Shown in pieces: positions 1,576-38,215 of a stretch of DNA of 64,000 bases. A program made the translations under genes and the position numbers. Position 1 is the stretch's first letter. Each line of letters begins with the position of its first letter. The stretch is from Patescibacteria group bacterium. Its GTDB lineage: Bacteria > Patescibacteriota > Microgenomatia > Levybacterales > UBA12049. The notes below the pieces were generated by a model. That model made no database searches, was not told the origin of the DNA, and saw only the letters and a program-made list of their open reading frames with translations. The stretch is from positions 8,529 through 72,528 of the forward strand of contig JBGTMH010000080.1 of assembly GCA_041743715.1 (NCBI GenBank), written 5' to 3'.

Positions 1576-1576
1576 A

Positions 1577-2374: not shown

Positions 2375-2376
2375 CT

Positions 2377-3159: not shown

Positions 3160-3160
3160 A

Positions 3161-4740: not shown

Positions 4741-4756
4741 ACGTATTGAGGCAACG

Positions 4757-6723: not shown

Positions 6724-9700
6724 TTATGGAGTTATTGTCCACGTTCCAAATGATTTGAAGGCACTACATGCTGCTCCACCCTGTACATCAGCTGACTTTT
6801 TCGGACCTGTCCCAACTGTCGTCCCGAGGAGAAAATTGTTTCTGAGATAATACATTTTTGCGTCTGTTCCGATAGTTGCACCAAATTGACTATTTGCCTG
6901 ACTGTCATTGTACCAAAGCCTCGCTGTCCCAAGTGGACTCAGAGAGCCAGTACAGGTGGTTCGTGCATATACTTTGATACTCAATTTTGATCCTTGTGGA
7001 AAATCAACTGGGGTGAATGTATTAAAAGGAATTGTCTGTAACTTTGCACTTGAAAATCCACCAAAGCCTACTAATCCTAGATTAACACTATTAATCTGTC
7101 CTGAACTGACTAACGTTGTATCTTTATACGCCTCAGCCTTCAGATCAAACTTTGCTCCTGCTCCGAAAATACCACCGAGTCCTACCCATACTTTTGTAGG
7201 ATTCAAAGACGTAAGTTTGTTTGGTTGATTCTCCTCAACGATAGCAAAGGGTGAAAGAGAGGAGGAAATGCCGACTATTTCATACGTAAATGTACCAGCG
7301 TCAATAAGCGTACTTGTTTGGGTTATATCTTCCCACCCAGAACCGTCATTGTGGAGAAGTCTCGGATCCTGGATTGCATCTTCACCTATATAATGCACGG
7401 TGACAGTGACCGGCCCCGTATATGTTGCTGTTGTTGTTATGTTATAAAACGTATTGAGTGTGCTATATCGTGGCGGTATGGGGCCGTCAGGATTGGAGTC
7501 TAACTCTTCGATCAGGACATAGCCAGGTGAAGTTACCTCACTGAATGAAACGGTGGTATTGCCGATCGTAACTGTCTCTTGCCCGGGTGAAACCTGTGCG
7601 GCATGCACGGTACTGCTGATAGTAAATGTTTGGGTCTTATGCGGTGTTTCTTCAAGTCCGGTATTGTCAACGGACCAGTAGATGATCGTATGTTCTCCTG
7701 CATCGGAGACGGTAAACGGCCCGGTATATGGTTGCTGAGCATTGCTGTCGATTTGATAGTAGGTGTCCTCAACACTAAAGCCTGATGCTGCTGATGCGGA
7801 AAGCGTTACCTGTACTGGATCAGGGTACTCGCCATTCTCAAGAGCGCTTGGGGCTATGTTTGCTGTGGTCGTTGGCTCGTCGTGTGGCGCGGGTGTCGGA
7901 GTTATAGTTGGAGTAGGCGTATTCGTAGGTGGAAATTTAGAATAAAGTTCTGCTGATGCAAGATTGGTACCATTGCTATTTCCTCCTACTGCTAATACTT
8001 GATCATCCGATAATAGTACAGTACTATGATAAACTCGTGCAACATTCATTGGTGTGGTTAGTGACCAAACACCACCGACAGGATCATATAGCTCCGAAGA
8101 AGCAAGTTGTGTCTGTGATATATCTGCAGTAGATCCTCCCGCAACAAGAACACGACCATCTGAAAGCAAGGTAGAGGTCGTATAACGTCGACCAGTATTT
8201 AAGTTTCCAGATGCTGTCCATATTCCAGTAGCTGGGTCATAGAGTTCTGTTAGTGAGGAGGGTGACATTGTTGAACCAACAACAAGCACTTTACCATTGT
8301 TAAGACGAGTCAATGTATGTTCTACTCGTCCTCTTTGCGTAGAACCGGTTTGTGTCCAAGTTCCTGTATTTGGATCATATAATTCTGCGGATAATGCTGT
8401 TGCGGAGGTAGGTCCTCCATTACCTCCGGAAACAAGCACTTTTCCATCTGCAAGGAGAACAGCCCGATGAAAGTAACGAGGTGAACTCATCGAGCCTGTT
8501 AGTGTCCAGGTTTCAGTAGTTGGATCATATATCTCAGATGAAGCGTGCTCAACGCTGATGTTATTAACAATATCATATCCTCCTGCTGCTAATACCCTTC
8601 CATCAGAAAGCAATGTTATTGTAGGTTGCGTACGAGGAACATTCATAGATCCCGTGTACGTCCATGCTCCAGTAGTAGGATTATATAACTCAGCAGCGGC
8701 AAGAACACCTCCATTATCATAACCATAACCTCCTGCAAGGAGCACTTTCCCATTAGCGAGAGTGACTGCTGTGGGAAAATCATTGCGTGCTATATTTACT
8801 GAACCCGTCGCATTCCATACACCAGTTGTTGAATCATAGAGGTCTGTAGTCGTAGTCGCCAGGACATTGCTACTTCCTGTAACAAGTACTTTGTCATTTT
8901 GTAATAAGGCTATTGCAAAACCAGCACGCGATTCATTCATAGAGCCTGTGTACGTCCAGGTTGGATTTGGCGTAAGTGCAGTATAAAGTTCTGCTGTTGC
9001 TAAATGGCGGCCAGAAGTATTTCCTCCGACTGCCAACACTCTATCGTTTGATAATAATATCGCTTCATGGTAAAATCGTGCATCACTAAGGGATGCCGTA
9101 TTTGTCCACGTATCGCTTACAGGATCATACAGCTCAGCAGAAGTGAGATAAAAAGGAGTACCACTATTGCCTGATCCTCCAGTAGCAAGAACACTACCGT
9201 CAGAAAGCAAGGTTGCAGTATGCAAACGTCGCTTATTATTTAAGTCTCCCGCGGCTGTCCATGTACCTGTCACGGGATCATACAATTCTGTTGATGCAAA
9301 GTCGTCACCACCTATATAGCCGCCAACAAGAAGTACTTTCCCATTTGCAAGCAGCGTCGATGTATGTTCGAAACGAGGTGATGTGATAGATCCGGTTGGT
9401 GACCAAGTGCCTGTCGCGGGATCATAAATCTCGGCTGAAGTACGATAGACAAAGGAAGAGCTAGGATTGTCTCTATACGCTCCTCCAACCACTAACACCT
9501 TCCCATCAGAAAGTACTGTCGCTGTGTGTCTGGAGCGTGATGCATTCATGGATCCAGTTGGTGACCATGTATCTGTACTCGGATCATATATCTCTGCTGT
9601 GGAATAGGATAGTTGGTTTGATCTCTCGCCTCCTGTTACTAATATCTTTCCACCAGCAAGGACTGTGGCAGTAGCATATATGCGAGGTTCTGGCATAGAT

Positions 9701-10185
9701 GCAGCGCTCGTCCATGTACCATTACTCGGATCATATAATTCTGACGAAGAAACATGTTCTCCTGAAGAAACCCCTCCGGTTATTAGCACCTTTCCATTAG
9801 GAAGTGTTACAGTTAGGAAGCTTTGGCGGGGAGCATTCATTGCCCCTGTGGTATTCCATGTGCCATTTGTTGGATCATATATTTCTGCTGAAGAAAGTAG
9901 AATTATATCGCCTTCCTCCGTGTGGCTTTGACCTCCAAATACAATTACTTTACCATTTTGTAATAGAGTCGACCCAAAGTTACTACGTCCTTCATTCATA
10001 GAACCCGTATTTGTCCAGTCAGAAGCAGTCTGTGCATATCCGCGGGAATTTATTATCGGTAAAACGAAAAGCATGACTACCAAACTTACCACGACACTGA
10101 GACCAAGGAAATAGGGGGATAACTTATTCTTTGCTATAAACTTAAAAGGAGAAACAGCGTGATTTACTAGTTGTTTTAACTGCAT
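6724..10185 (-). CDS. Giant secreted Kelch-repeat protein P1, with chitobiase-like domain and conserved C-terminal domain
   Basis: N-terminal signal anchor (LSVVVSLVVMLFVLPI). At least 14 Kelch-type blades with the recurring motif SAE(I/L)YDP(x)TGTW(x)xTGSMxxxRxxH(T/E)AxLLxxGKVLVxGG. A PT linker PTNTPTPTITPTPAP is followed by a chitobiase/beta-hexosaminidase-C-like domain (TYYQIDSNAQQPYTGPFTV...IIYWSVDNTG) and then the ~165-aa conserved CTD ending GGAACSAFKSFGTWTITP. Confidence 0.85.
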   Translation of the reverse strand: MQLKQLVNHAVSPFKFIAKNKLSPYFLGLSVVVSLVVMLFVLPIINSRGYAQTASDWTNTGSMNEGRSNFGSTLLQNGKVIVFGGQSHTEEGDIILLSSAEIYDPTNGTWNTTGAMNAPRQSFLTVTLPNGKVLITGGVSSGEHVSSSELYDPSNGTWTSAASMPEPRIYATATVLAGGKILVTGGERSNQLSYSTAEIYDPSTDTWSPTGSMNASRSRHTATVLSDGKVLVVGGAYRDNPSSSFVYRTSAEIYDPATGTWSPTGSITSPRFEHTSTLLANGKVLLVGGYIGGDDFASTELYDPVTGTWTAAGDLNNKRRLHTATLLSDGSVLATGGSGNSGTPFYLTSAELYDPVSDTWTNTASLSDARFYHEAILLSNDRVLAVGGNTSGRHLATAELYTALTPNPTWTYTGSMNESRAGFAIALLQNDKVLVTGSSNVLATTTTDLYDSTTGVWNATGSVNIARNDFPTAVTLANGKVLLAGGYGYDNGGVLAAAELYNPTTGAWTYTGSMNVPRTQPTITLLSDGRVLAAGGYDIVNNISVEHASSEIYDPTTETWTLTGSMSSPRYFHRAVLLADGKVLVSGGNGGPTSATALSAELYDPNTGTWTQTGSTQRGRVEHTLTRLNNGKVLVVGSTMSPSSLTELYDPATGIWTASGNLNTGRRYTTSTLLSDGRVLVAGGSTADISQTQLASSELYDPVGGVWSLTTPMNVARVYHSTVLLSDDQVLAVGGNSNGTNLASAELYSKFPPTNTPTPTITPTPAPHDEPTTTANIAPSALENGEYPDPVQVTLSASAASGFSVEDTYYQIDSNAQQPYTGPFTVSDAGEHTIIYWSVDNTGLEETPHKTQTFTISSTVHAAQVSPGQETVTIGNTTVSFSEVTSPGYVLIEELDSNPDGPIPPRYSTLNTFYNITTTATYTGPVTVTVHYIGEDAIQDPRLLHNDGSGWEDITQTSTLIDAGTFTYEIVGISSSLSPFAIVEENQPNKLTSLNPTKVWVGLGGIFGAGAKFDLKAEAYKDTTLVSSGQINSVNLGLVGFGGFSSAKLQTIPFNTFTPVDFPQGSKLSIKVYARTTCTGSLSPLGTARLWYNDSQANSQFGATIGTDAKMYYLRNNFLLGTTVGTGPKKSADVQGGAACSAFKSFGTWTITP

Positions 10186-10374: not shown

Positions 10375-11649
10375 CTATACAACTGTCGTCTCAGGATAGA
10401 CGGCGCGGAATTCGCGGATGGCGGTTACTTTTACTTCTCCAGGAACTGCGAGGGATCTACTGACTTCTTCTTGAATCTTGCGTGAGAGTAAAACAGTCTG
10501 GGCATCATCTAATTTACCGGGATTAATAATAACCCTGAGTTCTCGTCCAGCTTCGAATGCATATGCATCGACTACTCCTTCGTAATTTTTGGCGATTTGT
10601 TCCATTTCGGTCAAGCGCTGGCCGTATTTTTCCAGATCTTCATACCGAGCTCCAGGACGCGCAGCAGAGATAGCGTCAGCGATATGGACAATAACCGATT
10701 CGACCGAAGAGAATGGCTTGTCTTCGTGATGTTCTGCAACCGCATTCACAATCGGCTCAGGAATATTGTAACGTTTGAGTAGTTCAACTCCCAACTTTAC
10801 ATGACTCCCGTCCCCCTCAAGCACTTTTCCGATATCATGGAACAGACATCCGAGTCTGACGATATCGACATTGGCACCGATTTCATGTGCGATATGGACG
10901 CCGATTTTTGTTTCTTCAAGCGTGTGAACGAGCAAATTTTGTCCATATGACGTTCTAAATTTCATCCGACCCAACAATGGGTATAAATCAGTAGGCAGAC
11001 TATAGATGTTCACTTCATTGGCAAGATTTTCACCCTCTTGAAACATAATTTTCTCAAGCTCCTCCTTGGTTTGCTTGACTATTTCTTCAATTCTGAAAGG
11101 CTGGACCCGGGTGTCTTTTAATAATTTCTCAAGGGACCGGCGGGCAACTTCCCTACGGATTTGATCAAACGATGACAAACGGATGATTCCTTCTTCATCC
11201 AAATCGACATCAACGCCTGTTGACTGCTCAAACGCACGGATATTGCGTCCTTCTTTGCCTATTATCCGCCCTTTCATTTCTTCATCGGCAACTCTCACAA
11301 CAGAAACTGTATATTCAGGAACAAATTTTAACGCCCCATGCTTCAAGCTATCAAGAATTATTTCCTGCGCTTTATTATCGGCTGTAGCGCGGGCTTCTTC
11401 TTCTTTGTCTTTGATAATCTTCGCCATCATGGCTGCTGAATCATTTTCAGTTTCTGCCAAAAGCTGTTTTCTTGCTTCATCGACGCTAAAATCTGAAACT
11501 TTTTCGAGTTTTTTGACGTACTCTTGCCGTTTCTTTTCAAACTCTACTTTATCCTGCTCGAGATCGTCGCGTTTTACTTCCAGTTTTTCTTGAAGCTCTA
11601 GTAATTTTTTCTCAAGTTGAATGAGATCTTGTTGTGATGCTGTTGACAT
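10375..11649 (-). CDS. rny: Ribonuclease Y (KH + HD domains); no N-terminal TM helix evident
   Basis: KH region (GKEGRNIRAFEQSTGVDVDLD) and HD motif (LGCLFHDIGKV) are present, together with the conserved stretch FRTSYGQNLLVHTLEETKIGVHIA. The start is set at the ATG giving MSTASQQD; the track start at 11682 uses a TTG codon. Confidence 0.85.
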   Translation of the reverse strand: MSTASQQDLIQLEKKLLELQEKLEVKRDDLEQDKVEFEKKRQEYVKKLEKVSDFSVDEARKQLLAETENDSAAMMAKIIKDKEEEARATADNKAQEIILDSLKHGALKFVPEYTVSVVRVADEEMKGRIIGKEGRNIRAFEQSTGVDVDLDEEGIIRLSSFDQIRREVARRSLEKLLKDTRVQPFRIEEIVKQTKEELEKIMFQEGENLANEVNIYSLPTDLYPLLGRMKFRTSYGQNLLVHTLEETKIGVHIAHEIGANVDIVRLGCLFHDIGKVLEGDGSHVKLGVELLKRYNIPEPIVNAVAEHHEDKPFSSVESVIVHIADAISAARPGARYEDLEKYGQRLTEMEQIAKNYEGVVDAYAFEAGRELRVIINPGKLDDAQTVLLSRKIQEEVSRSLAVPGEVKVTAIREFRAVYPETTVV

Positions 11650-11786
11650 AGTATTTATACGTGGCAAAAGAAGAATACCCAAAGGGCATTTATGCTTGAA
11701 CTATGAAGGTGAGTTCTGTTCGCTTCATAAAAATTATCAATCCCGATAGAATCGAGACCACCCAACTTCTCTTGCTATAAGGTGTA

Positions 11787-12260
11787 TTATACTCTATTTT
11801 CTAAATAATCGTCAATTGCCTTTTTTATTATGTCCCATCCGAAGCCGCGTCGAGCTAAAAAAGCCCCGACTTTATTATATATCTCTTGCCTGGGATAGCC
11901 CTGCATTTTTTCCATGCGTTTGACAATAATTGATTTTGCCTGAGTTAATTCATCAGTAAGCTCTTCATTCTCTTCACCCAAAATCTCCTCAATCAACTCT
12001 TTTGCAATGCCTTTTTGTTGGAGTTCGATTTGCAAAAGTCGTTTGCCTATGGGACGTAGTCTTCCACGGTACTGAACCCATGAACGGGCAAAAGCTTCAT
12101 CATTAAGAAATTTTTGCTCAGTCAGCCGCGAAATAACCTGCTCAATCAATTCTGGCGTAGCATTTTTTTTGGTGAGGTAATCCCGAATTTCTTTTTTCGA
12201 CCGGTTACGGATTGCAAGATAGCGATAGACAAGATCCAAATATTTTCTTAATTGCTCCAT
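11787..12260 (-). CDS. recX: RecX family recombination regulator
   Basis: Three-helical-repeat RecX pattern (YRYLAIRNRSKKEIRDYLTKK...FLNDEAFARSWV...AFLARRGFGWDII). Start set at the ATG giving MEQLRKY; the track start is TTG. Confidence 0.8.
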   Translation of the reverse strand: MEQLRKYLDLVYRYLAIRNRSKKEIRDYLTKKNATPELIEQVISRLTEQKFLNDEAFARSWVQYRGRLRPIGKRLLQIELQQKGIAKELIEEILGEENEELTDELTQAKSIIVKRMEKMQGYPRQEIYNKVGAFLARRGFGWDIIKKAIDDYLENRV

Positions 12261-12314
12261 TTTAGAGAATCGCAATTTTCCTATGTGACAAAGCTGTGAA
12301 GAAATGAGTCTGCA

Positions 12315-15300
12315 TTATGGAGTAATCATCCATGTTCCAAAAGACTTGAAAGCACTACAAGCAGCTCCACCTTGGACATCAACTGTCTGTTTGGGACCAC
12401 TTCCTACTGTTGGTGAGAGGACAAAGTTATTAAGCAGATAGTAATTGCTTGTATTCGTTCCAATCGTTGCTCCAAACTGACTATTGACTTGATTATCATT
12501 GTACCAAAGCCTTGCAGTTCCAAGTGGATTTTGGGAACCTGTACAGGCTGTCCGTGCAGATACTTTGATACTGAGCTTTGATCCTTGAGGGAAATCAACA
12601 GGTGTAAAGGCACTAAAAGGAATTGTCTGTAGTTTTGCTCCACTAAATCCGCCAAACCCAAATCCTGGGTCTGCGCTGTTGAGTTGTCCCGTACTGACAA
12701 GCGTTGTGTCTTTATAAGCCTCAGCTTTCACGTCAAATTTTGCACCAAAACCAAAGAAGTTAGGTAATCCAATCCATACTTTTGCAGGACTCAGTACAGT
12801 GAGTTTATCTGGAGTTGGAGTAGGTGTCGGGGTATTTGTGGGGGTAGGAGCTGCGGTTGGAGTGGGTGTATTCGTTGGTGTAGGCGTTGGAGTACTGGTT
12901 GGTACAGGTGCAATACCAAAATTAACAGTGGTATCAGCAGTTAATGGTACTGAAACCGGATTTGTGGTCGTTGCTGTATATCCTGTTGGAACATTGAGAT
13001 CAACGGTATACGAACCAGTGGTGAGGGATGAGAACGCATAGTTACCTGTACTATTTGTAGTATCAGTGTTACTTACGTCTCCTGAGAGCGTTATTGTCGC
13101 TCCTTGATAGTCTGTTTCTCCTGAGTCTTTGACTCCATTTTGATTGGTGTCTGTATAGACGTTACCGTCAATGGTATATGTTGGTACCGGAGTTGGGGTT
13201 GGGGTATTGGTAGGTGTTGGTGTTTCTGTTGGTGACGGTGTCGCGGTAGGCGTAGGTGTCTCAGTTGGGGTCGGGGTTGGAGTACTTGTTGGCACAGGAG
13301 CGATACCGAAGTTTTGTGTTGTATCAGCACTGACAAAAACTATCGCAGGATTTGTCGTTGTTGCCATATACCCGGCAGGAATCGTTAATGTTTCGGTATA
13401 TGTTCCACTTTGCAAATTCGGGAACGCATAGTTGCCTTCTTGATCTGCTGTTGTTGTCTCTCCAGTATCAAGTGTTAGTGTGGCGTCATTGACGCCTGTT
13501 TCTGAGGAATCTTGCACACCATTTTGGTTGGCATCAATATACACGGTTCCTGAAAGAGTATGTGTTGGAATTGGCGTAGGTGTTGGGGTATCGGTTGGAG
13601 TTGGTGTCGGTGTCTCCGTGGGAGTTGGAGTATTTGTGGGAGTAGGTGTACTGGTTGGGGTAGGTGTAGGCATCTCGGTTGGTGTCGGGGTATTCGTAGG
13701 AACAGGAGCAATACCAAAATTTTGCGTGGTATCCTCAGTGAGTGGCACTGTTACTGGATTGGTGGTAGTTGCTATATACCCAGCTGGAACGGAAAGCGTT
13801 TCTGTGTACGAATCTGTTTGCAGATTTGGAAACGTGTAAATGCCATTTGCATCGGTTTCTGTTGACTGTCCTGAATCAAGTGTCAGTGTTGCTCCACTGT
13901 AGCCTGTCTCTCCTGCATCCTGTACACCGTTCTCGTTAGCATCGATATAGACTGTTCCTGTCAGGCTATAAGAAGCTATGGTAAATGGTTTGCTATTTTG
14001 TGATTCTGTTACGCCTGAGTTGTCAACCGACCAATAGACAATGGTATGATTACCATTTCCTGATACGGTAAATGGAGCAGTATATGTTTGCTGTGCTCCC
14101 CCATCTACTTTGTAATAGGTATTAGCAACTGTATATCCAGATGCTGCAGTTGCAGAAAGCGTGACGGTTACAGGATTGGAGTAAGCCCCATCAGAAAAGG
14201 GAGTTGGTGCGAGAGTCGCAGTAGTGACTGGTGGATTATGTGAGTATTGCAATGAAATCACTTCACTCTGATCTGAAGTTACAGTAATATTATTGAGAGT
14301 AAAGGTAGAATAAATGCTCCCACCTGGTGGGGTAGCTGTAAAACTATATGTACTATTTGCATTTGTCGGCAAAAGCCATAAAGTAGTATCGCCGTTTGAA
14401 TCAGTTGCTGGACCAGAAGCATTTGCGCCATAGGATGACCCACCAGATACGTTGGTTATTCCTCCCCCAATTGACAGTCCACCATTATTGATTATCCCAC
14501 TTGGCGGTGAGGTACTGATCACTACGTTGTCTATTGGGTTTCCTTGCATATCTTGTATATGAACACTGACCTTTTTCGCTGGAATTGTAATATCTAAATT
14601 GGTATTTTGAGTTAGAGAATATGGCGTAGCAATGACATTATATGTTTGTGGAGCATTAAGGGATAAATTATTTGCATTAGCGTTAATAGTCAAAGCATAG
14701 GTTCCAGTTGATGCTTGTAAGGAGTAATTGCCTAAAGAATCTGTATTTGTGGTTGCTTGGATTTGTCCTGAAGACTGTAAAGAAACTGTCTGGTTTGATA
14801 GTGGGTTACCAAGCGGATCAAATACATGACCGCTCAATGTAACTGGCTGATTCATAGTTACTGTCTTTTGAGTATTACCAGTAATTGAAATATTAGAAAG
14901 CGTAGTTGTAGTGAAAGTGCTTCCAGCAGGTGTTTTAGCAATTATGTTGTATTTACTTGTAGTATCCGTCGGCAATAACCATAATGTGACATTTCCATTT
15001 ATGTCTGTCTTGGGGCCAGGAGCATTATTGCCATAGATTGATCCACCTGATGCATTCGTTATTCCTTCACCAATAACGAGTGTTCCGTTATTAATGGTTC
15101 CATTTGGACTTGTATTAATTTCTGAATTACTAATGGGACTTCCTGCTGCGTCTTGTACATGAACGTCTACTTTAACAGCAGGAACCGTGAGATTTAAAGT
15201 TGTGTTTTGTGTAAACTCAGTAGCAGAAGAAAAATTAGTAATTTTGTATTCCTGGGGAGCATTCAATGAGAAACTATTATTATTTGCATTTATAATAAGG

Positions 15301-16409
15301 GTATACTTTCCAGATGAAACTTGCATTGAATAATTCCCTGAGTTGTCTGTTGTTGAAGTTGCTACTATCTGTGCAGAGGTTGCTTGTAAAGACACTGTTT
15401 GATTTGGAAGTGGATTACCCAAAGAATCATTTAAATGTCCATTTACAGTTACTGGCTGTGTTAAAGTAATCGTTTTCTGGGTATCAGTTGTAATAGCTAC
15501 ATTATTAAGAGTCGTTGTTGAATAAACACTCCCAAATGGAGGAACAGCAGTAAAGGTATACGTGCTATTTGCATTTGTCGGCAAAAGCCATAATGTTACA
15601 TTTCCTGCAGCATCTGTTTTTGGTCCTGGAGCATTACTTCCATATGAAGATCCTCCTGACCCAGTAGTGATACCACTTCCAAGTGAAAGTCCACCATTAT
15701 TGATAATACTTCCACCTGGTGGCGAAGTATTAAGTTCTACATTACTAATGGGATTTCCTGCAGCATCTTGAACATGTGTAGTAACTTTCTTCACTGGAAT
15801 CGTAATATCTAAAATGGCACTTTGACTAAACGATGTAAAAGGTGTTCTTATCCTGTATGTTTGAGGAGCGTTGAGAGATAAGCTATTATTATCAGCAGAG
15901 AAAAAAAGAGTATATGATGCAGCTGAGACTTGAAAAGAGTAACTCCCATTAGCATCTGTTGTAACATTTGTTTGTGTGGCATCCGAAGCTTGTAATGTCA
16001 CGGTCTGATTCTGGAGAGGATTACCCAATGGGTCAAATAGGTGTCCACTTATAATTATTGATCCTGCAGGGGCGAAAACAAAATTTATAACGGTGTTGGA
16101 GGAAATAGTCCTACTTGGAATATGAATTGGTGCAAAATTGCTTCCGGCAGGCGGAGTCACTTTTATAGAATAAGTTCCTCCTGGAACAATTAAACTATAA
16201 CTACCATCACTATCACTTGTGGTACTATCTACAAGTACATTTGAATTAGCATCATTTACATTTATTGTTGCACCGCTAACCGTACTTCCTGATGAATTTT
16301 TTACCGATCCTGATATAGTAACCGTGTCCGCATGAACACTATCAGCCAAAGATAATCCGAAAAAGCTTAGGATTAAAGTCAAAAATATGACGTTGATAAT
16401 TTTTATCAT
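12315..16409 (-). CDS. Giant secreted multi-module surface protein P2 (1364 aa)
   Basis: Signal peptide MIKIINVIFLTLILSFFGLSLADSVHA. Carboxypeptidase-regulatory-like/Cna-B-like modules, then three ~195-aa internal repeats (VTVNGHLNDSLGNPLPNQTVSLQ...HVQDAAGSPISNSEINTSP...WLLPTDTTSKY). A chitobiase-like domain follows, then three SdrD-B-like modules (GTVYIDANENGVQDAGETGY...) separated by PT-rich linkers, then the conserved ~165-aa CTD. Confidence 0.85.
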   Translation of the reverse strand: MIKIINVIFLTLILSFFGLSLADSVHADTVTISGSVKNSSGSTVSGATINVNDANSNVLVDSTTSDSDGSYSLIVPGGTYSIKVTPPAGSNFAPIHIPSRTISSNTVINFVFAPAGSIIISGHLFDPLGNPLQNQTVTLQASDATQTNVTTDANGSYSFQVSAASYTLFFSADNNSLSLNAPQTYRIRTPFTSFSQSAILDITIPVKKVTTHVQDAAGNPISNVELNTSPPGGSIINNGGLSLGSGITTGSGGSSYGSNAPGPKTDAAGNVTLWLLPTNANSTYTFTAVPPFGSVYSTTTLNNVAITTDTQKTITLTQPVTVNGHLNDSLGNPLPNQTVSLQATSAQIVATSTTDNSGNYSMQVSSGKYTLIINANNNSFSLNAPQEYKITNFSSATEFTQNTTLNLTVPAVKVDVHVQDAAGSPISNSEINTSPNGTINNGTLVIGEGITNASGGSIYGNNAPGPKTDINGNVTLWLLPTDTTSKYNIIAKTPAGSTFTTTTLSNISITGNTQKTVTMNQPVTLSGHVFDPLGNPLSNQTVSLQSSGQIQATTNTDSLGNYSLQASTGTYALTINANANNLSLNAPQTYNVIATPYSLTQNTNLDITIPAKKVSVHIQDMQGNPIDNVVISTSPPSGIINNGGLSIGGGITNVSGGSSYGANASGPATDSNGDTTLWLLPTNANSTYSFTATPPGGSIYSTFTLNNITVTSDQSEVISLQYSHNPPVTTATLAPTPFSDGAYSNPVTVTLSATAASGYTVANTYYKVDGGAQQTYTAPFTVSGNGNHTIVYWSVDNSGVTESQNSKPFTIASYSLTGTVYIDANENGVQDAGETGYSGATLTLDSGQSTETDANGIYTFPNLQTDSYTETLSVPAGYIATTTNPVTVPLTEDTTQNFGIAPVPTNTPTPTEMPTPTPTSTPTPTNTPTPTETPTPTPTDTPTPTPIPTHTLSGTVYIDANQNGVQDSSETGVNDATLTLDTGETTTADQEGNYAFPNLQSGTYTETLTIPAGYMATTTNPAIVFVSADTTQNFGIAPVPTSTPTPTPTETPTPTATPSPTETPTPTNTPTPTPVPTYTIDGNVYTDTNQNGVKDSGETDYQGATITLSGDVSNTDTTNSTGNYAFSSLTTGSYTVDLNVPTGYTATTTNPVSVPLTADTTVNFGIAPVPTSTPTPTPTNTPTPTAAPTPTNTPTPTPTPDKLTVLSPAKVWIGLPNFFGFGAKFDVKAEAYKDTTLVSTGQLNSADPGFGFGGFSGAKLQTIPFSAFTPVDFPQGSKLSIKVSARTACTGSQNPLGTARLWYNDNQVNSQFGATIGTNTSNYYLLNNFVLSPTVGSGPKQTVDVQGGAACSAFKSFGTWMITP

Positions 16410-16484
16410 TTAAGTTTATATGCTTTCATACAATCTACTAGGTCTACTTCATTATCAAATAAAACTATTCTCCTTGTCAATATA

Positions 16485-16752
16485 GATTCTTATAAACTTT
16501 CTATAAAAAGCAGGGATACCATATTCTCTATATTTTACTGCTTAAAAGATACTATTTCAGTCTGTATTTTCAATTTTCTATTAATGGAAGGTAAAAGTTT
16601 TGTCTTTTATCTTAACATCGAAAGGTTCTTTTTTTTGAATATGTATGTAGACATAGGAATATAATTCGTTAGGGTTTATCTTATATGCTTTCTCCAGCAC
16701 AACTAAAGCTCCTTGTTTATCATGCTGATTGTATTTCGCAATAGCTAAGCAG
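16485..16752. repeat. 268-bp direct repeat, copy 1 (3' end of GT gene 16581..18353 plus downstream sequence); copy 2 at 20505..20773
   Basis: About 93% nucleotide identity with 20505..20773, e.g. gattcttataaactttctat(a/g)aaaagcagggataccatattctctata...catgctgattgtatttcgcaat. Confidence 0.85.
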
Positions 16753-18353
16753 AACCATAACCCATCAGAAGTTGGATAATCTTCAAGTGCATTCATTATA
16801 AAGGGAACTGCTTGAGGGTCTTTATCATAAAAAACTAGTATTGTCGCGTAATCTATATAGGTATCAATCGCATGTTTATGCATGGGTGCTATTTTGTAGT
16901 CCTTCGCGTGAAGAGCCATTGATAGGTATTTTCTTGCTTTTTCTATATCTCCTAGATTTACCGCATAGACTACTCCTAGGTTATGTAGATTTCCCTCATA
17001 AGGTCTTAATAACACAGATCGTTTGTGATGTTCCAGAGCCTTTGCATGTTCTCCTCTATTGGTATACTCTATACCGAGATTTTGCTGGATGCTATAGTTG
17101 TCATTTATTTGAATATCATGGGTATACAAAGCGATAGCATCATGCCAATCATTATTTCTCAGTATTGTCCTATATGACAAAGAAAAGACAATGAGTACTG
17201 CAAGGATAATAGGTATTGCTTTGTGCTTTGGTAGGTTACCTAGAAGATCTTTGTAGATAATAGCAAGCATACCAAGTAATCCTATTATTGGAAAGTAAAA
17301 CCAGCGATCTGCCACCGTATAATCAAGTGGGTAAATCTGTGAGTGCAAGAAGAGTCCTAAGATAAACCATAGAGTGAAAAAAAGAAATATCTTGAAACTC
17401 TGTTTTCTATGCGCATAAAGATAGTAACCGCAGATTCCAATTAGCGTAAAAAAAGTGAAGTTAACAAGTAAAGGAAAATAAAAAGTAGAAAAATTCAAAG
17501 AGGGAATAGTCCATTGCTGATCAATAGCAAGTGATATCGGAAAGAAAAACGTCTTGATGTAGTAAAAAATAACTATTGGTATATGTGTCAATCGCTCCAA
17601 AAGAGTTAATCCTGCAACAGGAGCTAAAAGACGTGTTGAAAAATCAACTTGCCCTATGAAAAAACGGAAAAAGAGATATACAATAACAACAGATACGCTT
17701 ATAACAAAAAGCTTTACTTTGTTATCTTTGACAAAGAGAACACGATAAATAAACACTAAAGGAATAAACAAAACACCTGTTTCTTTTGTAAGTATTGAGA
17801 GTAGTAAGAACAAGAATATAGTAAACAGGTCACTCTTAGATAATCTCTTCCTTGTAGAAACAAGTAGCGCTACTAATCCAAATAGCAAAAATAAAGGACT
17901 TGTCGTCTGAGCAATATAAGACACTGACTCAACATTTATTGGATGGACGAGAAATAGTAAAGCGGAAAAAAATGCAATTCCACTGTGAAGAAATTTACGA
18001 AAAAATTTGAATATCAATATTGCACAGACGATGTGCAAAATAATTTGTAAAAAATGGTAAAAAAATGAAGCGTTACCGAAAAAGGTATAAAGAAAAGAAA
18101 AGTAAAATACAGGAATTGGACGATATTGTCCTCCAATGTTAAACAGATTCGGTCCGAATGAAAATGGCAAGTCTGCCTGATGGATTAATGGATAATTGAT
18201 AATATATGTTTTATCATCCCAAACAAACCCATTGAAAAGTGTATTGAAGTAAACAATAAAACCAACAATAAAAATAATATGAATTGCTTTAAGTGTAGTT
18301 AAAGGAATAAGTAAATTCTTAAGTGAAAATTCTTCTTGTTCTTTTTCTTGCAT
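16581..18353 (-). CDS. GT-C fold glycosyltransferase, PMT/TMTC-like (family 39-like), with C-terminal TPR repeats
   Basis: About 11 TM segments with loop-1 motif FNGFVWDD (PMT/TMTC DD/DE motif). The C-terminal ~170 aa is soluble and TPR-like (LGIEYTNRGEHAKALEHHKRSVLLRP..., YDKDPQAVPFIMNALEDYP). Confidence 0.65.
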   Translation of the reverse strand: MQEKEQEEFSLKNLLIPLTTLKAIHIIFIVGFIVYFNTLFNGFVWDDKTYIINYPLIHQADLPFSFGPNLFNIGGQYRPIPVFYFSFLYTFFGNASFFYHFLQIILHIVCAILIFKFFRKFLHSGIAFFSALLFLVHPINVESVSYIAQTTSPLFLLFGLVALLVSTRKRLSKSDLFTIFLFLLLSILTKETGVLFIPLVFIYRVLFVKDNKVKLFVISVSVVIVYLFFRFFIGQVDFSTRLLAPVAGLTLLERLTHIPIVIFYYIKTFFFPISLAIDQQWTIPSLNFSTFYFPLLVNFTFFTLIGICGYYLYAHRKQSFKIFLFFTLWFILGLFLHSQIYPLDYTVADRWFYFPIIGLLGMLAIIYKDLLGNLPKHKAIPIILAVLIVFSLSYRTILRNNDWHDAIALYTHDIQINDNYSIQQNLGIEYTNRGEHAKALEHHKRSVLLRPYEGNLHNLGVVYAVNLGDIEKARKYLSMALHAKDYKIAPMHKHAIDTYIDYATILVFYDKDPQAVPFIMNALEDYPTSDGLWFCLAIAKYNQHDKQGALVVLEKAYKINPNELYSYVYIHIQKKEPFDVKIKDKTFTFH

Positions 18354-18482
18354 AATCTCATCCTAACATGGTTATAAGGAGGATACAATAATAATTGATT
18401 AGGGATTCATTGCCATTGCATTCTAGCTAAATCAAACGCATAAGGATATTTTCATTTGTGGATGAACGTGTTGCACTTCGTT

Positions 18483-18870
18483 TTAGAGTCTTGATACTAA
18501 CGAATCATCTTTTCTTATAAGCATAAACAGACCTGCTGTTAAACCCAGAAACTGAAATAATTCTTCAGGGTCTTCGGCAAATTTACGCATGACTGATTTA
18601 AAATTTCTCACAATTCCTCGATGAAAAATGCTTGTAACAATATTCCTGAGTATTGCCATCGTTTGTGGAGCATGGCCGCGGCGTATAGTAGATTTATCTT
18701 CGTTGAAAACAACGTCTCTCTGTCTATGTAGCCTGTTCTCAATGCCCCAGTGTCCTCTGATATATCCGATAATCTGCTCTGTCAGTTTCTCCTCCTCCTG
18801 TATCTCGGCAGGAATTCGTGCAATGCCAACGCTTACTGTCGTTGTCGTTTTGTCAATTGTGGCTAGGGGT
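18483..18870 (-). mobile_element. ISAs1-family (IS4-like, DDE_Tnp_1) transposase C-terminal fragment; remnant
   Basis: My own minus-strand translation reads ...IARIPAEIQEEEKLTEQIIGYIRGHWGIENRLHRQRDVVFNEDKSTIRRGHAPQTMAILRNIVTSIFHRGIVRNFKSVMRKFAEDPEELFQFLGLTAGLFML. It has the GHWxIENxLH...R.GxAPxNMAxLRxI signature of ISAs1/H-repeat transposase C-termini. There is no N-terminal DDE region, and an upstream in-frame stop lies at 18871-18873. Confidence 0.6.
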
Positions 18871-19086
18871 TAGAATGCAATGGCAATGAGGCTACCCAAA
18901 CATTGGTTGTCCGAGAATATAGCAAATGCTACAATAATAAATAATAGGCTCAGATTTTAAAATCTATCGTAATAACATCTATAATTAGTATTGTTTAGTT
19001 TAAAAATAATATATAGTATTAATTATATTGTGATTATGGAAAATTTAATATAATACTTTTTCTATTTTCTTTTTTTAATAATAACA

Positions 19087-20447
19087 ATGATTTATATTTT
19101 ACTTTTAACTGTTGGCATCATCTTCTTCCTCATTCAGTTAGATATATCAAAATATTTTGTATTCACGGATAGCAACGTTTATCTCTACTATGCCGATCAG
19201 ATATCAAAAGGAGCAACGTTATATAAGGATCTCTATATGACGAATTTCCCCCTGGTCCCATACGTCTCCGTACTTTATAAATACATCACGTTTGGTTCCT
19301 TGCATGGGTATTACATGACTGGCTGTATCGAAGCCTTGTTATCGGCAGCAATTTTGTTTTTGTGTTTAAAAAAAACGCATAAAAATAATTTTTTTGGTTT
19401 CATTGGAGCAATCTTTTATTTATCGACGTTCCTAGTATTTTCATCTGCCAATCATCAGAATGGAATTTTGTTCGCTGTATTACTGTTTAACATTGCCTAT
19501 CTATGTTTTCTCTACAAGAGATATATCCTAACAGGAATTTTCCTGGGTTTGGCATTAAGTGCAAAAGCGTATATGCCACCAATAATTGCAGGTTTTCTGG
19601 TTTTTGTATTCATTAAAGAACGAAGGCTTACTCTACCTTTGTTGACTGGTATGACTGGTGCGATTGCAATTATTTTTCTCCCCACAGTGCTCTATGCCTA
19701 CAATGATTTTGTTAGTCAAGTATTCGGATACTCTCTTACTCGACCTGCTGGATTTGATAAATGGAATATGATCACCTCCTTTATTACACTAGATCCGATC
19801 GTGGTGGGTCTTTTGTTTTATTCACTTATTAGGTGGCGAAAACTTATGTTCCTGCCTTAGCTACAAGTTTCGGGATCGTCTTCTTAAGTTTTTATCAAGA
19901 TCTCTATCTTTTATATTTCAATATTTTTGTTCCTATTGCAGTAATTGCGTTAGGAGATTTACTTGTAACTATTGAAAAACACACTAAAAATTATGGTGGC
20001 ATAATAGTCTTATTAAGTATCATTATAGTTATAAATTTATTTAACGTAGGTCGCTATATAAACACTATTCACGGATTCATGGCAATTCCTAATATTACTG
20101 AATTTGTGAACATTGTGGAAAATACAAAACCAGATTACTTGTATGGTGAATTTGGCATTGTGCAGGGGATCAGTTATCTGTCTGGAATACCTATGCTCGA
20201 AGGAGTTTCAGATACGAATAGAACGATGTTTCTCGCAGGGGTTTTAGATAAAAATACCATTACCGAAAAAGTGAAGAAAACTAATACGGTAGTGATTGCA
20301 AATTCATCTGATAACAATCTTGATATTGGTACAGCATCCGCATATTTAAATTGGGGAGAATTAAAAAATCAATGCAAAATAATCCATTCCCAAGATTTTA
20401 AAACGGGATCTTCGGTAAATAAAATAAATATTGTGAAATGTTTCTGA
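19087..20447 (+). pseudogene. ArnT/PMT-like GT-C glycosyltransferase (family 39/83-like) split by a frameshift near 19835-19860
   Basis: ORFs 19087..19860 and 19833..20447 are consecutive on the same strand, in different frames, and overlap by 28 nt around a gaaaac run. The N-terminal part is polytopic with the motif YYADQISKGATLYKDLYMTNFPLVPYV (ArnT-like D/ExxYA...G.LY.D...PPL). The second ORF is a soluble C-terminal domain. Confidence 0.5.
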
Positions 20448-20504
20448 ATGACTCCCACCTCTGGCTTAAAAGGAGCACAGGCTAATCGCCACCCTCTCAG
20501 GGTG

Positions 20505-20773
20505 AGATTCTTATAAACTTTCTATGAAAAGCAGGGATACCATATTCTCTATATCTTACTGCTTAAAAGATACTATTTCAGTCTGTACTTTCAGCTTTCT
20601 ATCAATGGAGGGTAAAAGTTTTATCTTTTATCTTAACATCGAAAGATTCTTTTTTTTGAATACGTGTGTAGACATAGGAATATAATTCGTTAGGATTTAT
20701 CTCATATGCTTTCTCCAGTGCGATTAAAGCTCCCTGTTTATCATGCTGATTGTATTTCGCAATATTACTACTA
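20505..20773. repeat. 268-bp direct repeat, copy 2 (truncated duplicate of the 3' end of the 16581..18353 GT gene)
   Basis: See 16485..16752. It contains a degraded duplicate of the GT gene's last ~55 codons. Confidence 0.85.
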
Positions 20774-20796
20774 TTACTATTCATTCTAATAAGCAC
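20602..20796 (-). pseudogene. Remnant of GT-C/TPR glycosyltransferase C-terminus (64-aa ORF inside the direct repeat)
   Basis: AKYNQHDKQGALIALEKAYEINPNELYSYVYTRIQKKESFDVKIKDKTFTLH is ~85% identical to the C-terminus of 16581..18353 (AKYNQHDKQGALVVLEKAYKINPNELYSYVYIHIQKKEPFDVKIKDKTFTFH). Confidence 0.7.
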
Positions 20797-20834
20797 CTCT
20801 TTCAGGAGCCTCTTCGGCTCCTCTCGTCAAGGGG

Positions 20835-22616
20835 TCAATTATTAAAATAATTTCTAGATCTTTCTATTTTAACGTTTTTATTATTAGTTAAAGCATAATA
20901 AAAATCCGCAGTCTCTGGATCATTGGGATTCAATGCATAAGCATTTTTTATCGCTTCCAAAGCAGCACTATTATGACCAGATTGATATTCTAGGATTGCT
21001 AAATTAAACCAAATTTTATAATTTTTTGGGAACTTTTCTAGAGAACTGACTATAAAACTCTTGGCAATATCGGCATCATAATAATGGGCATACAAGTAAC
21101 TTAAGCTCTCGTAGGCAAAGGGACTACCTGGTTCATTCTTTATCGAAGTCTTTAACACAATCTCTGCTTTAGTAAGCAATACTCTATTTTTATGTTTCTC
21201 CGCCTCCAACATCAAAACTGTACCTAAGCCATACGAATTCATACCATAATAGGGAGCAAGCTTAATGGAACGTTCGAAATATCCTCGGGCTTTGTCATTT
21301 AATCCAGCAAGAGACAAAGCAAATCCACATGAGTTTTCTAAGGTGAAATTATCGTGTGATTGATCTGCATCGTGGCACATTAAGGCCATATTATCTTTAA
21401 AATTCATATTTCTCTCTATTGTTCGAATGGATAAAATTATTGCCAATAGGATAAATACTATCAATAAAACATTGGTTGCATTTTTGGAGTTAACGAAGTT
21501 TTGCAGTACAATTCCGATCATTCCCAAAAGCCCAACTATTGGTAAATAAAACCATCGAGTCGCAACAGTTCCATCTAAAGGAATAAGTTGCAAGTGAAGG
21601 CTCAATCCGGTAACAAACCACAATACAAAAAAAATAAACCAACGAAATTGGATAAAATTTCTCTGATAGAGTATTTTTCCGAGGAAAAAAACTACTGCTA
21701 TAAACAAAGAAATTATTGCAAGAGGTAAATAAAAATTTACAAAACTAATAGACGTTACAACCCAGTCGTAACTTACTGCAAGATTTTTGGGAAATATGAA
21801 TGTTTGCAAATAATAAAAAATTATTAGAGGTATGTTCATTAATCTTTCAAAAAGTGATAACCTACTAATATGAAATTCGTTAGGTCCAGGAAAACCGACC
21901 GCAAGAGTGTGAATAATACTATAAGAAATGATAAATGGTAAGGTATAGATGATTGTTTCTTTTAAACGGTCTTTTCTAAAAAGGAAGATATAGAATATAT
22001 TAATAAAGACGAAAGCAATGCCTGTTTCTTTAGACAAGACAGATAATAGTAATAAGGAAAATACTTTTAGCTCTACATATTTAGATTTTTTTCCACTTGA
22101 GATTAATAATGCCAACACGCCGAAAAAGAAAAACATAACATCTTGTAAATCGGAAATGTATGCTCCCACTTCCTGATTAATTGGATGGACAAGAAAGATC
22201 ACAGAAATGGCAAGTGCCCATTCTTTGCGCAGAAATTTTTTAAAGAGAATAAATACTAATATCGCATTTATAATGTATAAAATTATCTGGAGTAAATGGA
22301 AAAGAAATGCATTTTGACCACCAATGGAATGAATAAGGGTAAATGTCGTTAATAGTAAAGGTTTGTAATAGTCACCTGAAATACCATTACCTTGATTAAA
22401 CGTACTGGTAGTAAAGAAGGTCGGAATATTTGCTGCTGAATGAATACTATTGTTTGTAACTATTTGTCCAAAATCATCAGCTACAAATCCATTAAAAAGC
22501 ACATTGCCGAATACAATAAATCCAACAATAACAATAATGTGAATTGCTTTTAGTGTTGTGAGGGGAACGAAAAACTGTTTTAAAGAAAATTCCTCTTCTT
22601 GTTTATCCTGAAGCAT
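20835..22616 (-). CDS. GT-C fold glycosyltransferase, PMT/TMTC-like, with C-terminal TPR repeats (paralog of 16581..18353)
   Basis: The N-terminus is colinear with 16581..18353 (EEFSLKQFFVPLTTLKAIHIIVIVGFIVFGNVLFNGFVADD). About 11 TM segments. TPR-like C-terminus (YFERSIKLAPYYGMNSYGLGTV..., AALEAIKNAYALNPNDPETADFYYAL). Confidence 0.65.
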   Translation of the reverse strand: MLQDKQEEEFSLKQFFVPLTTLKAIHIIVIVGFIVFGNVLFNGFVADDFGQIVTNNSIHSAANIPTFFTTSTFNQGNGISGDYYKPLLLTTFTLIHSIGGQNAFLFHLLQIILYIINAILVFILFKKFLRKEWALAISVIFLVHPINQEVGAYISDLQDVMFFFFGVLALLISSGKKSKYVELKVFSLLLLSVLSKETGIAFVFINIFYIFLFRKDRLKETIIYTLPFIISYSIIHTLAVGFPGPNEFHISRLSLFERLMNIPLIIFYYLQTFIFPKNLAVSYDWVVTSISFVNFYLPLAIISLFIAVVFFLGKILYQRNFIQFRWFIFFVLWFVTGLSLHLQLIPLDGTVATRWFYLPIVGLLGMIGIVLQNFVNSKNATNVLLIVFILLAIILSIRTIERNMNFKDNMALMCHDADQSHDNFTLENSCGFALSLAGLNDKARGYFERSIKLAPYYGMNSYGLGTVLMLEAEKHKNRVLLTKAEIVLKTSIKNEPGSPFAYESLSYLYAHYYDADIAKSFIVSSLEKFPKNYKIWFNLAILEYQSGHNSAALEAIKNAYALNPNDPETADFYYALTNNKNVKIERSRNYFNN

Positions 22617-22662: not shown

Positions 22663-23760
22663 TTATGATAGTTCTTCGTCTTCTTTATCCTCATCTCCGC
22701 CAACGATTAGAGGTGCCCTTCCGTCTTTGTTTTCAGCCATAATTTTTGCGACAATCTCTTTTTGCATTGCAGGGTCTGCCTTCAATGCTTCTATCGCCGC
22801 GACTTTCCCCTGTCCGAGCATCTGTTCATTGTACCGGTAGAACGCGCCTGATTTATTGATAACATTCATCTCAACCGCGACATCCAAAATTCCGCCTTCG
22901 CGTGAAATACCGGCATTGGTTATATCAAACTCAGCCATACGAAATGGTGCTGCAATTTTATTCTTCACCACTTTCACACGATGTCGTGAACCGATGACCC
23001 TATCCCCATCTTTCAGTGTCTCGATTTTCCGGATGTCCATCCGCACCGATGAATAAAACTTCAGCGCCATACCTCCGGTTGTCGTCTCTGGGTTACCAAA
23101 CATCACACCGATCTTCTGTCTAAGCTGATTGGTGAAAATAACAATCGTTCTTGATTTGGAAATAACAGCAGTCAGCTTACGCAAAGCTTGTGACATCAAT
23201 CGTGCTTGAAGCCCCATGGACGCGTCTCCCATCTCACCTTCAATTTCGGCCCGTGGTACCAGTGCCGCAACTGAATCAACGACCAATACATCCACACCAC
23301 CTGAACGAACCAAACTTTCAGTAATCTCAAGCGCCTGTTCACCGGTGTCGGGCTGGGAAATAAGCAGTTCTTCGAGCTTGACACCCAACTGCTGTGCTCG
23401 AAGCGGATCAAGCGCGTGCTCAGCATCGATAAAAGCTGCGATACCTCCATGCTTTTGGGCTTGTGCGATCGTTGAAAGACAGACAGTGGTTTTTCCTGAT
23501 GCTTCAGGTCCGTAGATCTCAACGATTCTTCCCCGCGGCAAACCGCCTGCGCCAAGCGCCAAATCAAGCGGCAAGCACCCCGTTGAGATAACTGAAATAT
23601 CAAATTTCTGCGCTGATTCTCCAAAACGCATAATCGATCCGCGGCCGTACTGTTTTTCAATCTGGTCCATGGCCATCCGAATGGATTCAAGTTTTTTACT
23701 TGCGTCATTCTGCTGCTCAACAGGGGTTGATTTTTGTGAATTCGAAGCTGATCGTGCCAT
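22663..23760 (-). CDS. recA: Recombinase RecA
   Basis: Walker [10 protein letters not shown], the canonical RecA core ([36 protein letters not shown]) and an acidic C-terminal tail. Start set at the ATG giving MARSASNSQ; the longer track ORF adds 25 N-terminal residues that are not RecA-like. Confidence 0.95.
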
Positions 23761-23870
23761 TATTAGGTTAAATTGTAACACTCTCAAAATAAAATACAAG
23801 GGGCAATTTCGATTATTTTTCATTAACACAAGCATGCCTCAATATGATAAAATTTTGTAGCTTACGTAAG

Positions 23871-24627: not shown

Positions 24628-25293
24628 TTAATAACTTGGACTTGTCGCTGGTTGTTTTTGCATCGCATCTCCGGTTGTTCCGCCTGTTGCTCCTGCAGTC
24701 CCTACTGTGACGACTGTACCCGTAGCGCTCTTCATAACTGATTCTGCAACTCCTCTTGCTGTGACAAGCGATGTAGGCAATAAGCCGAGTTGTGTTTCAG
24801 TACCGACTGCGCCAGCTTTTGTGGTAAAGGTAATTGTCGCAACTGATCCTGTACCCTTGATCGGTTGCGCATTTGGTGTTATCCCAAAGGCATAGGTATA
24901 TCTTCCTGCTGCTGGGTCATTTTTATCAATCAGTACTGCAGGATTCTGAATTAATGTGCCTGCTGTTACTTTGACATTACTCAACACATTCGGATCATAG
25001 CCGATCTCAAGTTGGACTGCTGTAACATCATTGTCTGAAGTATCAATTGTGACTTCAGCTGTTCCTTGTTGCCCAGGTCCAACGGTAAGAGGATTTGGTG
25101 CTAAAGCAAGGACTGTGTGAGCAGGCACAACGGGGGCCACGTTTTGCGCAGCAGCAGTCGGCTGTGGCGTTGCAGGCGGAGCTTTTTGCTCCTGTCCAGC
25201 TCGCAAAGCGATGACAAAAAGGATAACGGTTACTAAAACCAAACCAGAAATAAGGGCAAGTGTCTTTCTTGGCATATGTTCTGTATCCATCAT
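24628..25293 (-). CDS. Membrane-anchored secreted protein with cohesin-like/Ig-like beta domain (hypothetical)
   Basis: N-terminal TM anchor (LALISGLVLVTVILFVIAL) and an Ala/Pro-rich linker. Beta-rich region VTIDTSDNDVTAVQLEIGYDPNVLSNVKVTAGTL. Local GC is higher than in flanking genes. Confidence 0.45.
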   Translation of the reverse strand: MMDTEHMPRKTLALISGLVLVTVILFVIALRAGQEQKAPPATPQPTAAAQNVAPVVPAHTVLALAPNPLTVGPGQQGTAEVTIDTSDNDVTAVQLEIGYDPNVLSNVKVTAGTLIQNPAVLIDKNDPAAGRYTYAFGITPNAQPIKGTGSVATITFTTKAGAVGTETQLGLLPTSLVTARGVAESVMKSATGTVVTVGTAGATGGTTGDAMQKQPATSPSY

Positions 25294-35838: not shown

Positions 35839-35994
35839 ACCCTTTTGACCAAATACATCAATATCATGAAGACTTGCCCCGCGCACAATATGGTTGTTGA
35901 AGTTTTAATTATGCCGTTCAACAGACGTGTAAACTTATAAATTTAGCCTCAATATGTATAAATTATCTCCTGTTATGTGTTGTTGAAATTTTAA

Positions 35995-38122: not shown

Positions 38123-38215
38123 AAGGTTAAATCAAACCTCCTCGTCAGCTTTTTGAAGAGCTTAAATAAGTTTGTATATTGGGGAGAAATTAAACAAAAT
38201 GAGATTAAATAACAT

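Follow-up and report, generated by a model that had tools for sequence, protein, structure and literature searches.

Do two membrane glycosyltransferases of a Patescibacteria group bacterium glycosylate secreted protein, and is the surface protein encoded beside one of them a target? The question is raised by a stretch of 64,000 nt (contig JBGTMH010000080.1, positions 8,529-72,528, assembly GCA_041743715.1; hereafter the window), in which two paralogous genes for glycosyltransferases of the GT-C type (hereafter GT1 and GT2) lie near a gene for a large secreted protein with Pro/Thr (PT) linkers. A sequence-only reading had described these two genes, together with a frameshifted third GT-C gene between them, as a candidate locus for O-glycosylation of the linkers of neighbouring surface proteins. 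Calling of the open reading frames (ORFs) of the window recovered every ORF on which that reading was based, with the same coordinates (Table 1). Both GT1 and GT2 carry the FNGFV(W/A)DD motif in loop 1 and, according to Pfam, tetratricopeptide repeats (TPR) at the C-terminus, as had been proposed. The analyses described below place GT1 and GT2, as bacterial enzymes, in the TMTC-like branch of the GT-C glycosyltransferases, and identify the arrangement of GT1 followed by a surface-protein gene as one case of a recurrent gene pair. On balance, and with considerable reserve, we favor the view that these enzymes glycosylate secreted protein, and that the most likely substrate of GT1 is the product of the adjacent surface-protein gene.

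Assignment of GT1 and GT2 to the TMTC-like branch

Searches of the PDB by sequence and by profile with the membrane domain identified no match and no close relative with a solved structure. A profile of 17 sequences of the family of GT1 and GT2 was compared, with hhalign, with the N-terminal domains of 12 animal TMTC1-4 proteins (CAZy GT105), transcribed from Additional file 1 of PMC7801869. The match had a probability of 99.5 and an E-value of 7.7e-23, over 370 columns spanning the whole membrane domain. The controls were weak or negative, with E-values of 2.4e-4 (over 136 columns) for the family profile against the family of the middle GT-C gene, 0.13 for the TMTCs against that same family, and 0.54 for the family profile against the reversed TMTC sequences. 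Given this difference, the relationship with the TMTCs is specific and extends beyond generic GT-C similarity. The TMTC-like identity put forward earlier was thus borne out, and a confident AlphaFold2 model of GT1 also had a GT-C fold, its best match among solved structures being Pmt4, followed by ALG12, AglB, Pmt2 and ArnT. GT1 matched the Pfam family PMT_2 (PF13231) above the gathering score (7.7e-7), and 13 of the 17 family members also matched this family. The Pfam scan revealed no MIR domain and no match to PMT (PF02366), and there was a weak match to EpsG (0.0009) below the threshold; NCBIfam yielded sub-threshold TPR matches alone.

Seven motifs have been described for TMTCs: DD, SHKSYRP, RxD, KE(T/Q)xxT, DW, PxxP and ERxxY, numbered M1 to M7 (PMC7801869). 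The family of GT1 and GT2 contains M1, M4 (as KET) and M7 (as DRWFY), retains M2 as YRP alone, without conservation of SHKS, and has the tryptophan of M5 conserved and its aspartate variable. Motifs M3 and M6 are absent, and the Pfam family TMTC_DUF1736 (PF08409) was matched by only one of the 17 members (E-value 0.019). We therefore refer to GT1 and GT2 as TMTC-like, rather than as TMTC orthologues. FNGFVWDD aligns with the GFVFDD of M1 and, across 191 relatives, F43 was retained in 181, D46 in 183 and D47 in 187, a near-invariance identifying the motif as a family signature rather than a chance resemblance. Residues D46 and D47 directly follow the first transmembrane helix and constitute a putative catalytic or metal-site pair. 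GT1 and GT2 are 37% identical overall and 43% identical across the membrane domain, the TPR part therefore being the more diverged. GT2 retains the near-invariant residues of the family, with one exception: at the position of GT1 D349, where the ERxxY-like motif has its acidic residue (D or E in 185 of the 191 relatives, 97%), GT2 has a threonine; this substitution could reflect relaxed constraint or altered function.

The predicted topology of GT1 has short inner loops rich in lysine and arginine, with the DD pair, YRP, HP..E, KET, W281, DRWFY and the TPR domain all on the outer side, consistent with the earlier suggestion of an outward-facing DD motif; the long outer loop is only 54 residues long. 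The 11 helices, outward active-site motifs and TPR on this same side would together reproduce the topology proposed for TMTCs (PMC7801869). The likeness to animal TMTC1-4 also extends to a predicted cytoplasmic N-terminus, to the (L)LFxVHPIxxE and C-terminal K/RTxxRN motifs and to the presence of several paralogues in one genome. Unlike animal TMTCs, GT1 and GT2 have a much shorter TPR domain (about 170 residues), and their host is a bacterium, so a dolichol-phosphate-mannose donor cannot be assumed.

TfpW of Pseudomonas aeruginosa, a pilin D-arabinofuranosyl transferase encoded beside pilA (bioRxiv 10.1101/2020.04.19.049825), is the closest characterised bacterial counterpart in architecture and gene arrangement. 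It is likewise a bacterial GT-C enzyme, and resembles GT1 and GT2 in architecture, with its N-terminus in the cytoplasm, a predicted 11 transmembrane helices and a periplasmic C-terminal TPR domain. Its DDx motif, in periplasmic loop 1, is essential, and the DD pair of GT1 and GT2 also lies in the first outer loop. TfpW is encoded beside its protein substrate and GT1 beside a candidate substrate, but the substrate of TfpW is a small pilin encoded upstream, and its sugar is an arabinofuranose (Araf) oligomer, whereas the partner of GT1 is a large multidomain protein encoded downstream. No pilin gene adjacent to the glycosyltransferase genes was found in the window.

This is a large family, for which loose annotations already exist. 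At least 829 relatives were retrieved by a word-based search, some of them called “protein O-mannosyl-transferase” by JGI, and an exhaustive search with the membrane domain alone, in which representatives of clusters at 50% identity were counted, gave 801 representatives at E ≤1e-30, 9,185 at E ≤1e-10 and 40,847 at E ≤1e-3. The named relatives came mainly from metagenome-assembled genomes of Levybacteria, Microgenomates and other Patescibacteria, and several copies were often present in one genome: 18 of 81 loci had from two to five of them within 10 kb of the match.

Pairing with surface-protein genes in related genomes

The gene neighborhood of the family was investigated in 78 non-redundant loci from species-representative genomes, in which ORFs were called, and in an independent set of 79 metagenome loci. 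ORFs similar to the five surface proteins of the window were recorded by their position relative to the glycosyltransferase gene. The genome set contained 18 such ORFs: 14 adjacent to the glycosyltransferase gene, three at gene rank 2 and one at rank 3. They thus accounted for 14 of the 150 adjacent ORFs and for none of the 564 at gene rank ≥4 (Fisher p 2e-10). All 14 adjacent ORFs were on the strand of the glycosyltransferase gene and downstream of it; the gaps were 23-345 bp long, most of them 44-90 bp. The metagenome set gave a similar result (14/116 adjacent ORFs and 0/391 at gene rank ≥3, p 6e-10), with 11 of the 14 downstream on the same strand. Large predicted-secreted proteins made up 23% of same-strand downstream neighbors, and 9% elsewhere (odds ratio 3, p 0.002). 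Other downstream neighbors included PKD-domain proteins, a TMEM260-like GT-C/TPR protein, a YfhO-type GT-C protein and a fusion of a GT2-type glycosyltransferase with a methyltransferase (GT2-type denoting here, and below, the enzyme class and not the gene GT2).

The partners most commonly found downstream of GT1 relatives were proteins with CarboxypepD_reg repeats, like the surface protein encoded next to GT1 (16 of 30 partners, by homology to the N-terminal repeat region of that protein). For 18 of the 30 (permutation p 0.0004), the nearest paired glycosyltransferase had a partner of the same class. This match between subclade and partner fits matched enzyme-substrate pairs, and also fits plain vertical inheritance of the pair. 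The conservation of a directional gene pair in related genomes supports a functional link between enzyme and substrate, and the part of the sequence-only reading that connected the glycosyltransferases with surface proteins was to this extent upheld.

The same cannot be said of the linkers as the feature recognized. The pairing does not track PT linkers: ORFs with PT linkers accounted for 5 of 156 ORFs adjacent to the glycosyltransferase genes and 13 of 830 farther away, with no clear enrichment. Linkers rich in PT or PS were present in 3 of the 18 partner proteins of at least 400 residues. The partner proteins were Ser/Thr-rich overall (23% vs 12%).

Two further arrangements were recorded in these loci. 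In a Levybacteria genome (loci L001/L006, 8139-11785 and 11885-18642), a broken copy, in ORFs of 180 and 366 residues, lies directly upstream of an intact TMTC-like gene, which is followed by a 99-residue ORF with a weak match to T4SS_pilin and by a 2147-residue protein without a Pfam domain. Elsewhere, a TMTC-like gene is followed by a gene for a TMEM260-like GT-C/TPR protein or for a YfhO-type GT-C protein (L065, 4055-6064; L063, 1414-3627), neighbors indicating that different protein-glycosylating GT-C families cluster together in Microgenomates.

Layout and state of the locus

From recA, the minus-strand order is GT2, a 260-nt remnant, a convergent plus-strand gene (the frameshifted GT-C gene), an insertion sequence (IS) remnant, GT1 and the surface-protein gene (Table 1). 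The GC content is 33-34% over the glycosyltransferase genes and 42-45% in the flanks, a difference that may reflect foreign origin or simply membrane-protein composition. The region has undergone recent rearrangement, as seen in the duplication scar, the IS remnant, the frameshifted middle gene and the threonine substitution of GT2. The 260-nt direct repeat comprises the last 163 nt of GT1 and 97 nt downstream, and 4 nt separate the end of its first copy (16484-16743) from the -35 box in the promoter-like site of the surface-protein gene. The other copy is probably what is left of a tandem paralogue since lost or recombined. A tandem paralogue follows the gene of GT2's nearest relative (54% identity), and this arrangement, together with the remnant after GT2, suggests that a tandem of GT2 and a paralogue was once present here and was later broken. 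The IS remnant encloses a piece of a transposase C-terminus (HWGIENRLH...; Pfam DDE_Tnp_1, E-value 0.005, positions 143-197 of 200).

Table 1. Coordinates, within the window, of the glycosyltransferase locus, its flanks and the PT-linker surface-protein genes
Feature	Position	Strand	Remarks
Four further PT-linker surface proteins	6724-10185, 40767-43211, 43358-45382, 46181-50893		scattered over the window
recX/rny	11787-12275 and 10375-11682	-	other flank
Secreted surface protein, 1364 aa, candidate substrate	12315-16409	-	171 bp downstream of GT1, same strand
Three PT linkers of the candidate substrate, within 12798-13700	13551-13700, 13170-13304, 12798-12914	-	39-50 residues each
Near-consensus sigma-70-like promoter, TTGACA-18-GATAAT	16451-16480	-	between GT1 and the surface-protein gene
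GT1, TMTC-like GT-C glycosyltransferase, 590 aa	16581-18353	-
GT1 TPR domain, predicted extracytoplasmic	16584-17147		aa 403-590
GT1 membrane domain, 11 transmembrane helices	17148-18353		aa 1-402
FNGFVWDD motif of GT1	18213-18236	-	aa 40-47, first outer loop
IS remnant, MITE-like (miniature inverted-repeat transposable element)	18407-18889	transposase fragment on -	perfect 19-nt inverted repeats at both sides
Third GT-C gene, frameshifted	19087-20447	+	1-nt deletion near 19852-19856
Duplication remnant	20505-20764	-	93% identical to 16484-16743; just downstream of GT2
GT2, diverged TMTC-like paralogue, 593 aa	20835-22616	-
FNGFVADD motif of GT2	22473-22496	-	aa 41-48
recA	22663-23835	-	flank; GT2 abuts recA

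The middle gene occupies two frames, and its conceptual fusion aligns end to end with intact homologues of 453-455 residues; the junction in this alignment locates the single missing base. Its product would have a GT-C fold and belongs to a small family of proteins of that length, with a small C-terminal alpha/beta domain. The frameshifted GT-C gene had thus been correctly recognized, and its sequence indicates that it is inactivated. The idea of a glycosylation locus of three enzymes did not hold: the cluster is not conserved, the middle copy is broken and an intact homologue of the middle gene lies alone between rpoBC and alaS, ruling out the three genes as a conserved cassette.

The surface protein encoded next to GT1 has a signal peptide, beta-sandwich repeats of the CarboxypepD_reg type, three SdrD_B domains separated by the PT linkers and an unannotated C-terminal domain. 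The linkers reported for the neighboring surface proteins are real: three are present in this protein and others in the four further surface proteins, so that all five have long PT linkers. The placement of the glycosyltransferases directly beside such giant proteins was correct for GT1 but not for GT2, and the surface-protein gene next to GT1 is the only one of the five adjacent to any glycosyltransferase gene.

The five surface proteins share a C-terminal domain of about 163 residues (12315-12806, 6724-7215, ~42720-43211, ~44890-45382 and 46181-46670), ending in GGAACSxFKSFGTWxITP, for which no Pfam match was found. This domain is also present, with 65% identity, in a glycosyltransferase-adjacent protein of another genome (locus L051), and could be a domain for anchoring or sorting that is particular to the lineage.

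Elsewhere in the window, in a defense and mobile-element cluster (30370-40310), a type I restriction-modification system is present in full (R, 30370-33174; M, 33167-34687; S, 34684-35838), together with a Schlafen/AlbA_2 protein (35995-37737), RhuM (38216-39220) and an EVE/PD-(D/E)XK nuclease-like protein (39453-40310). One ABC ATPase gene is followed by five ABC-2 (ABC2_membrane_6) permease genes that are paralogous and overlap at their starts and stops (781-5743). A cohesin-domain protein is encoded near recA (24628-25293); toward the end of the window, 58796-61042 encodes a TraG/VirD4-like coupling ATPase.

The probable acceptor and the meaning of the pairing

If, as we favor, GT1 and GT2 glycosylate secreted protein, the enzyme would take a single sugar from a polyprenyl-phosphate-sugar donor, presumably synthesized elsewhere in the genome by a GT2-type enzyme. 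The TPR domain would capture the exported partner protein, and the sugar would be transferred to Ser/Thr hydroxyls outside the membrane. GT1 would most likely serve the surface protein encoded immediately downstream, and GT2 would be a diverged paralogue with a lost downstream neighbor. What the analysis shows is the fold, the homology, the motif conservation, the predicted topology and the conserved pairing; the type of donor, the acceptor and what the TPR does are our inferences. Precedents from experiment are known for GT-C enzymes whose genes adjoin those of their protein substrates: TfpW with pilin, Cbes_1864 with PT-linker cellulases (PMC6151902) and the Pgf cluster with Cnm adhesins (PMC11092751).

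Several observations weigh against this reading. The fold margin over lipid- and glycan-directed GT-C enzymes is small (Pmt4 18.6, ALG12 17.1, ArnT 15.6), and to this may be added the missing M3 and M6 motifs and the near-absence of TMTC_DUF1736 matches. The pairing was seen in about 18% of related loci; the closest relatives of GT1 (55-57% identity) lie between unrelated housekeeping genes, without it; and vertically inherited synteny alone could explain why the partner class follows the glycosyltransferase subclade. The promoter-like site between GT1 and the surface-protein gene means that their co-transcription is not assured. A polyprenyl-phosphate-sugar synthase was looked for in the 64-kb window and none was found, and GT2-type synthases of this kind were not enriched near family members. 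Literature searches within the library used identified no characterized bacterial TMTC-like enzyme and no study of glycosylation in Patescibacteria; PMC7801869 notes only that prokaryotic homologues exist.

A more specific version of the favored reading is that the TPR of each paralogue recognizes one class of folded beta-sandwich or beta-propeller surface module encoded downstream (CarboxypepD_reg, Kelch, Vgb/NHL and others), which is then O-glycosylated outside the cell. We consider this possible but doubtful. In animals, folded cadherin EC domains are the substrates of TMTC1-4, and disordered mucin-like regions those of POMT1/2 (PMC11292533); the candidates here would be CarboxypepD_reg, SdrD_B, Kelch and similar modules encoded nearby. 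The description of PT linkers as classical TMTC targets, in the sequence-only reading, was therefore mistaken.

The linkers themselves could nevertheless be the target, if GT1 and GT2 act in the manner of the PMTs or of Cbes_1864, decorating the disordered (P-T)n linkers in every PT-linker surface protein of this genome and thereby protecting them from proteolysis. Cbes_1864, a GT39 enzyme of Caldicellulosiruptor, is required for the glycosylation of PT-linker cellulases encoded nearby (PMC6151902), and the streptococcal GT-C enzymes Pgf and PgtC2 glycosylate disordered Ser/Thr-rich regions, Pgf being clustered with the Cnm adhesins (PMC11092751). Together with the long linkers of all five surface proteins, these precedents make linker glycosylation possible in this genome, and Pmt4 is the nearest solved fold. 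GT1 and GT2 share with the PMT/POMT enzymes (GT39, including actinobacterial Pmt and Cbes_1864) the acidic pair in loop 1 and, we infer, the use of a lipid-phosphate sugar donor. They differ from these enzymes in having TPR and lacking the MIR domain typical of PMTs, in matching only the generic PMT_2 model and in their profile homology to TMTCs, which act on folded Ig-like domains (PMC11292533). The streptococcal enzymes Pgf and GtrB/PgtC2, for their part, belong to a different GT-C family (YfhO), without TPR, and have a linked GT-A synthase that is absent here, the clustering of Pgf genes with adhesin-substrate genes being a point of resemblance. Most of the conserved partners lack PT linkers, PT-linker ORFs are not clearly enriched beside the glycosyltransferase genes and, of the five PT-linker proteins in the window, four have no glycosyltransferase gene next to them. 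We therefore regard the linkers as an unlikely target.

A lower probability still is assigned to an acceptor other than protein (a lipid, a glycopolymer of the cell wall or a polysaccharide anchoring the surface layer, for example), of the kind used by ArnT, YfhO and EpsG-type enzymes. The TPR would then serve assembly or localization, and the adjacent surface proteins might bind the glycan. The sub-threshold EpsG match, the YfhO-type or GT2-type glycosylation genes adjoining some relatives and the lack of a surface-protein partner at most loci are in keeping with such an acceptor. Against it stand the specific, full-length homology to the TMTC protein O-mannosyltransferases, the TPR, a protein-binding module common to TMTC, TMEM260 and TfpW, and the pairing with secreted proteins, which is directional, has short gaps and was seen in both data sets; no polysaccharide-synthesis genes linked to the glycosyltransferases were found in the window.

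Finally, it is improbable that a variable, low-GC island inserted between recA and recX carries the glycosyltransferase genes as decaying cargo, with their adjacency to a surface-protein gene incidental, because, despite the low GC content, the IS remnant, duplication scar and frameshift, the unusual substitution in GT2 and the density of surface-protein genes (five in 64 kb), GT1 and GT2 are intact, full-length ORFs with nearly all the invariant residues, the arrangement of glycosyltransferase then partner recurs across many species, and low GC is also expected for membrane proteins rich in Phe, Ile, Lys and Asn.

If the acceptor were a glycan or a lipid, the finding would shrink to an ordinary island of cell-envelope glycosyltransferases. 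If each paralogue does glycosylate a matched class of folded module, as in the more specific version above, GT1, GT2 and their relatives would represent a bacterial equivalent, and perhaps the evolutionary origin, of the O-mannosylation of particular domains in animal cadherins and plexins. The selection of folded domains by TMTC and TMEM260 enzymes is an open question, for which simplified systems with recombinant domains and TPR repeats have been called for (PMC11292533), and the gene pairs described here would provide ready-made enzyme-substrate pairs for studying TMTC-type target choice. Were secreted protein the acceptor, Patescibacteria, despite their small genomes, would devote several paralogues to the decoration of surface proteins of probable central importance to a lifestyle that depends on attachment, and the origin of the TMTC branch would move back into bacteria.

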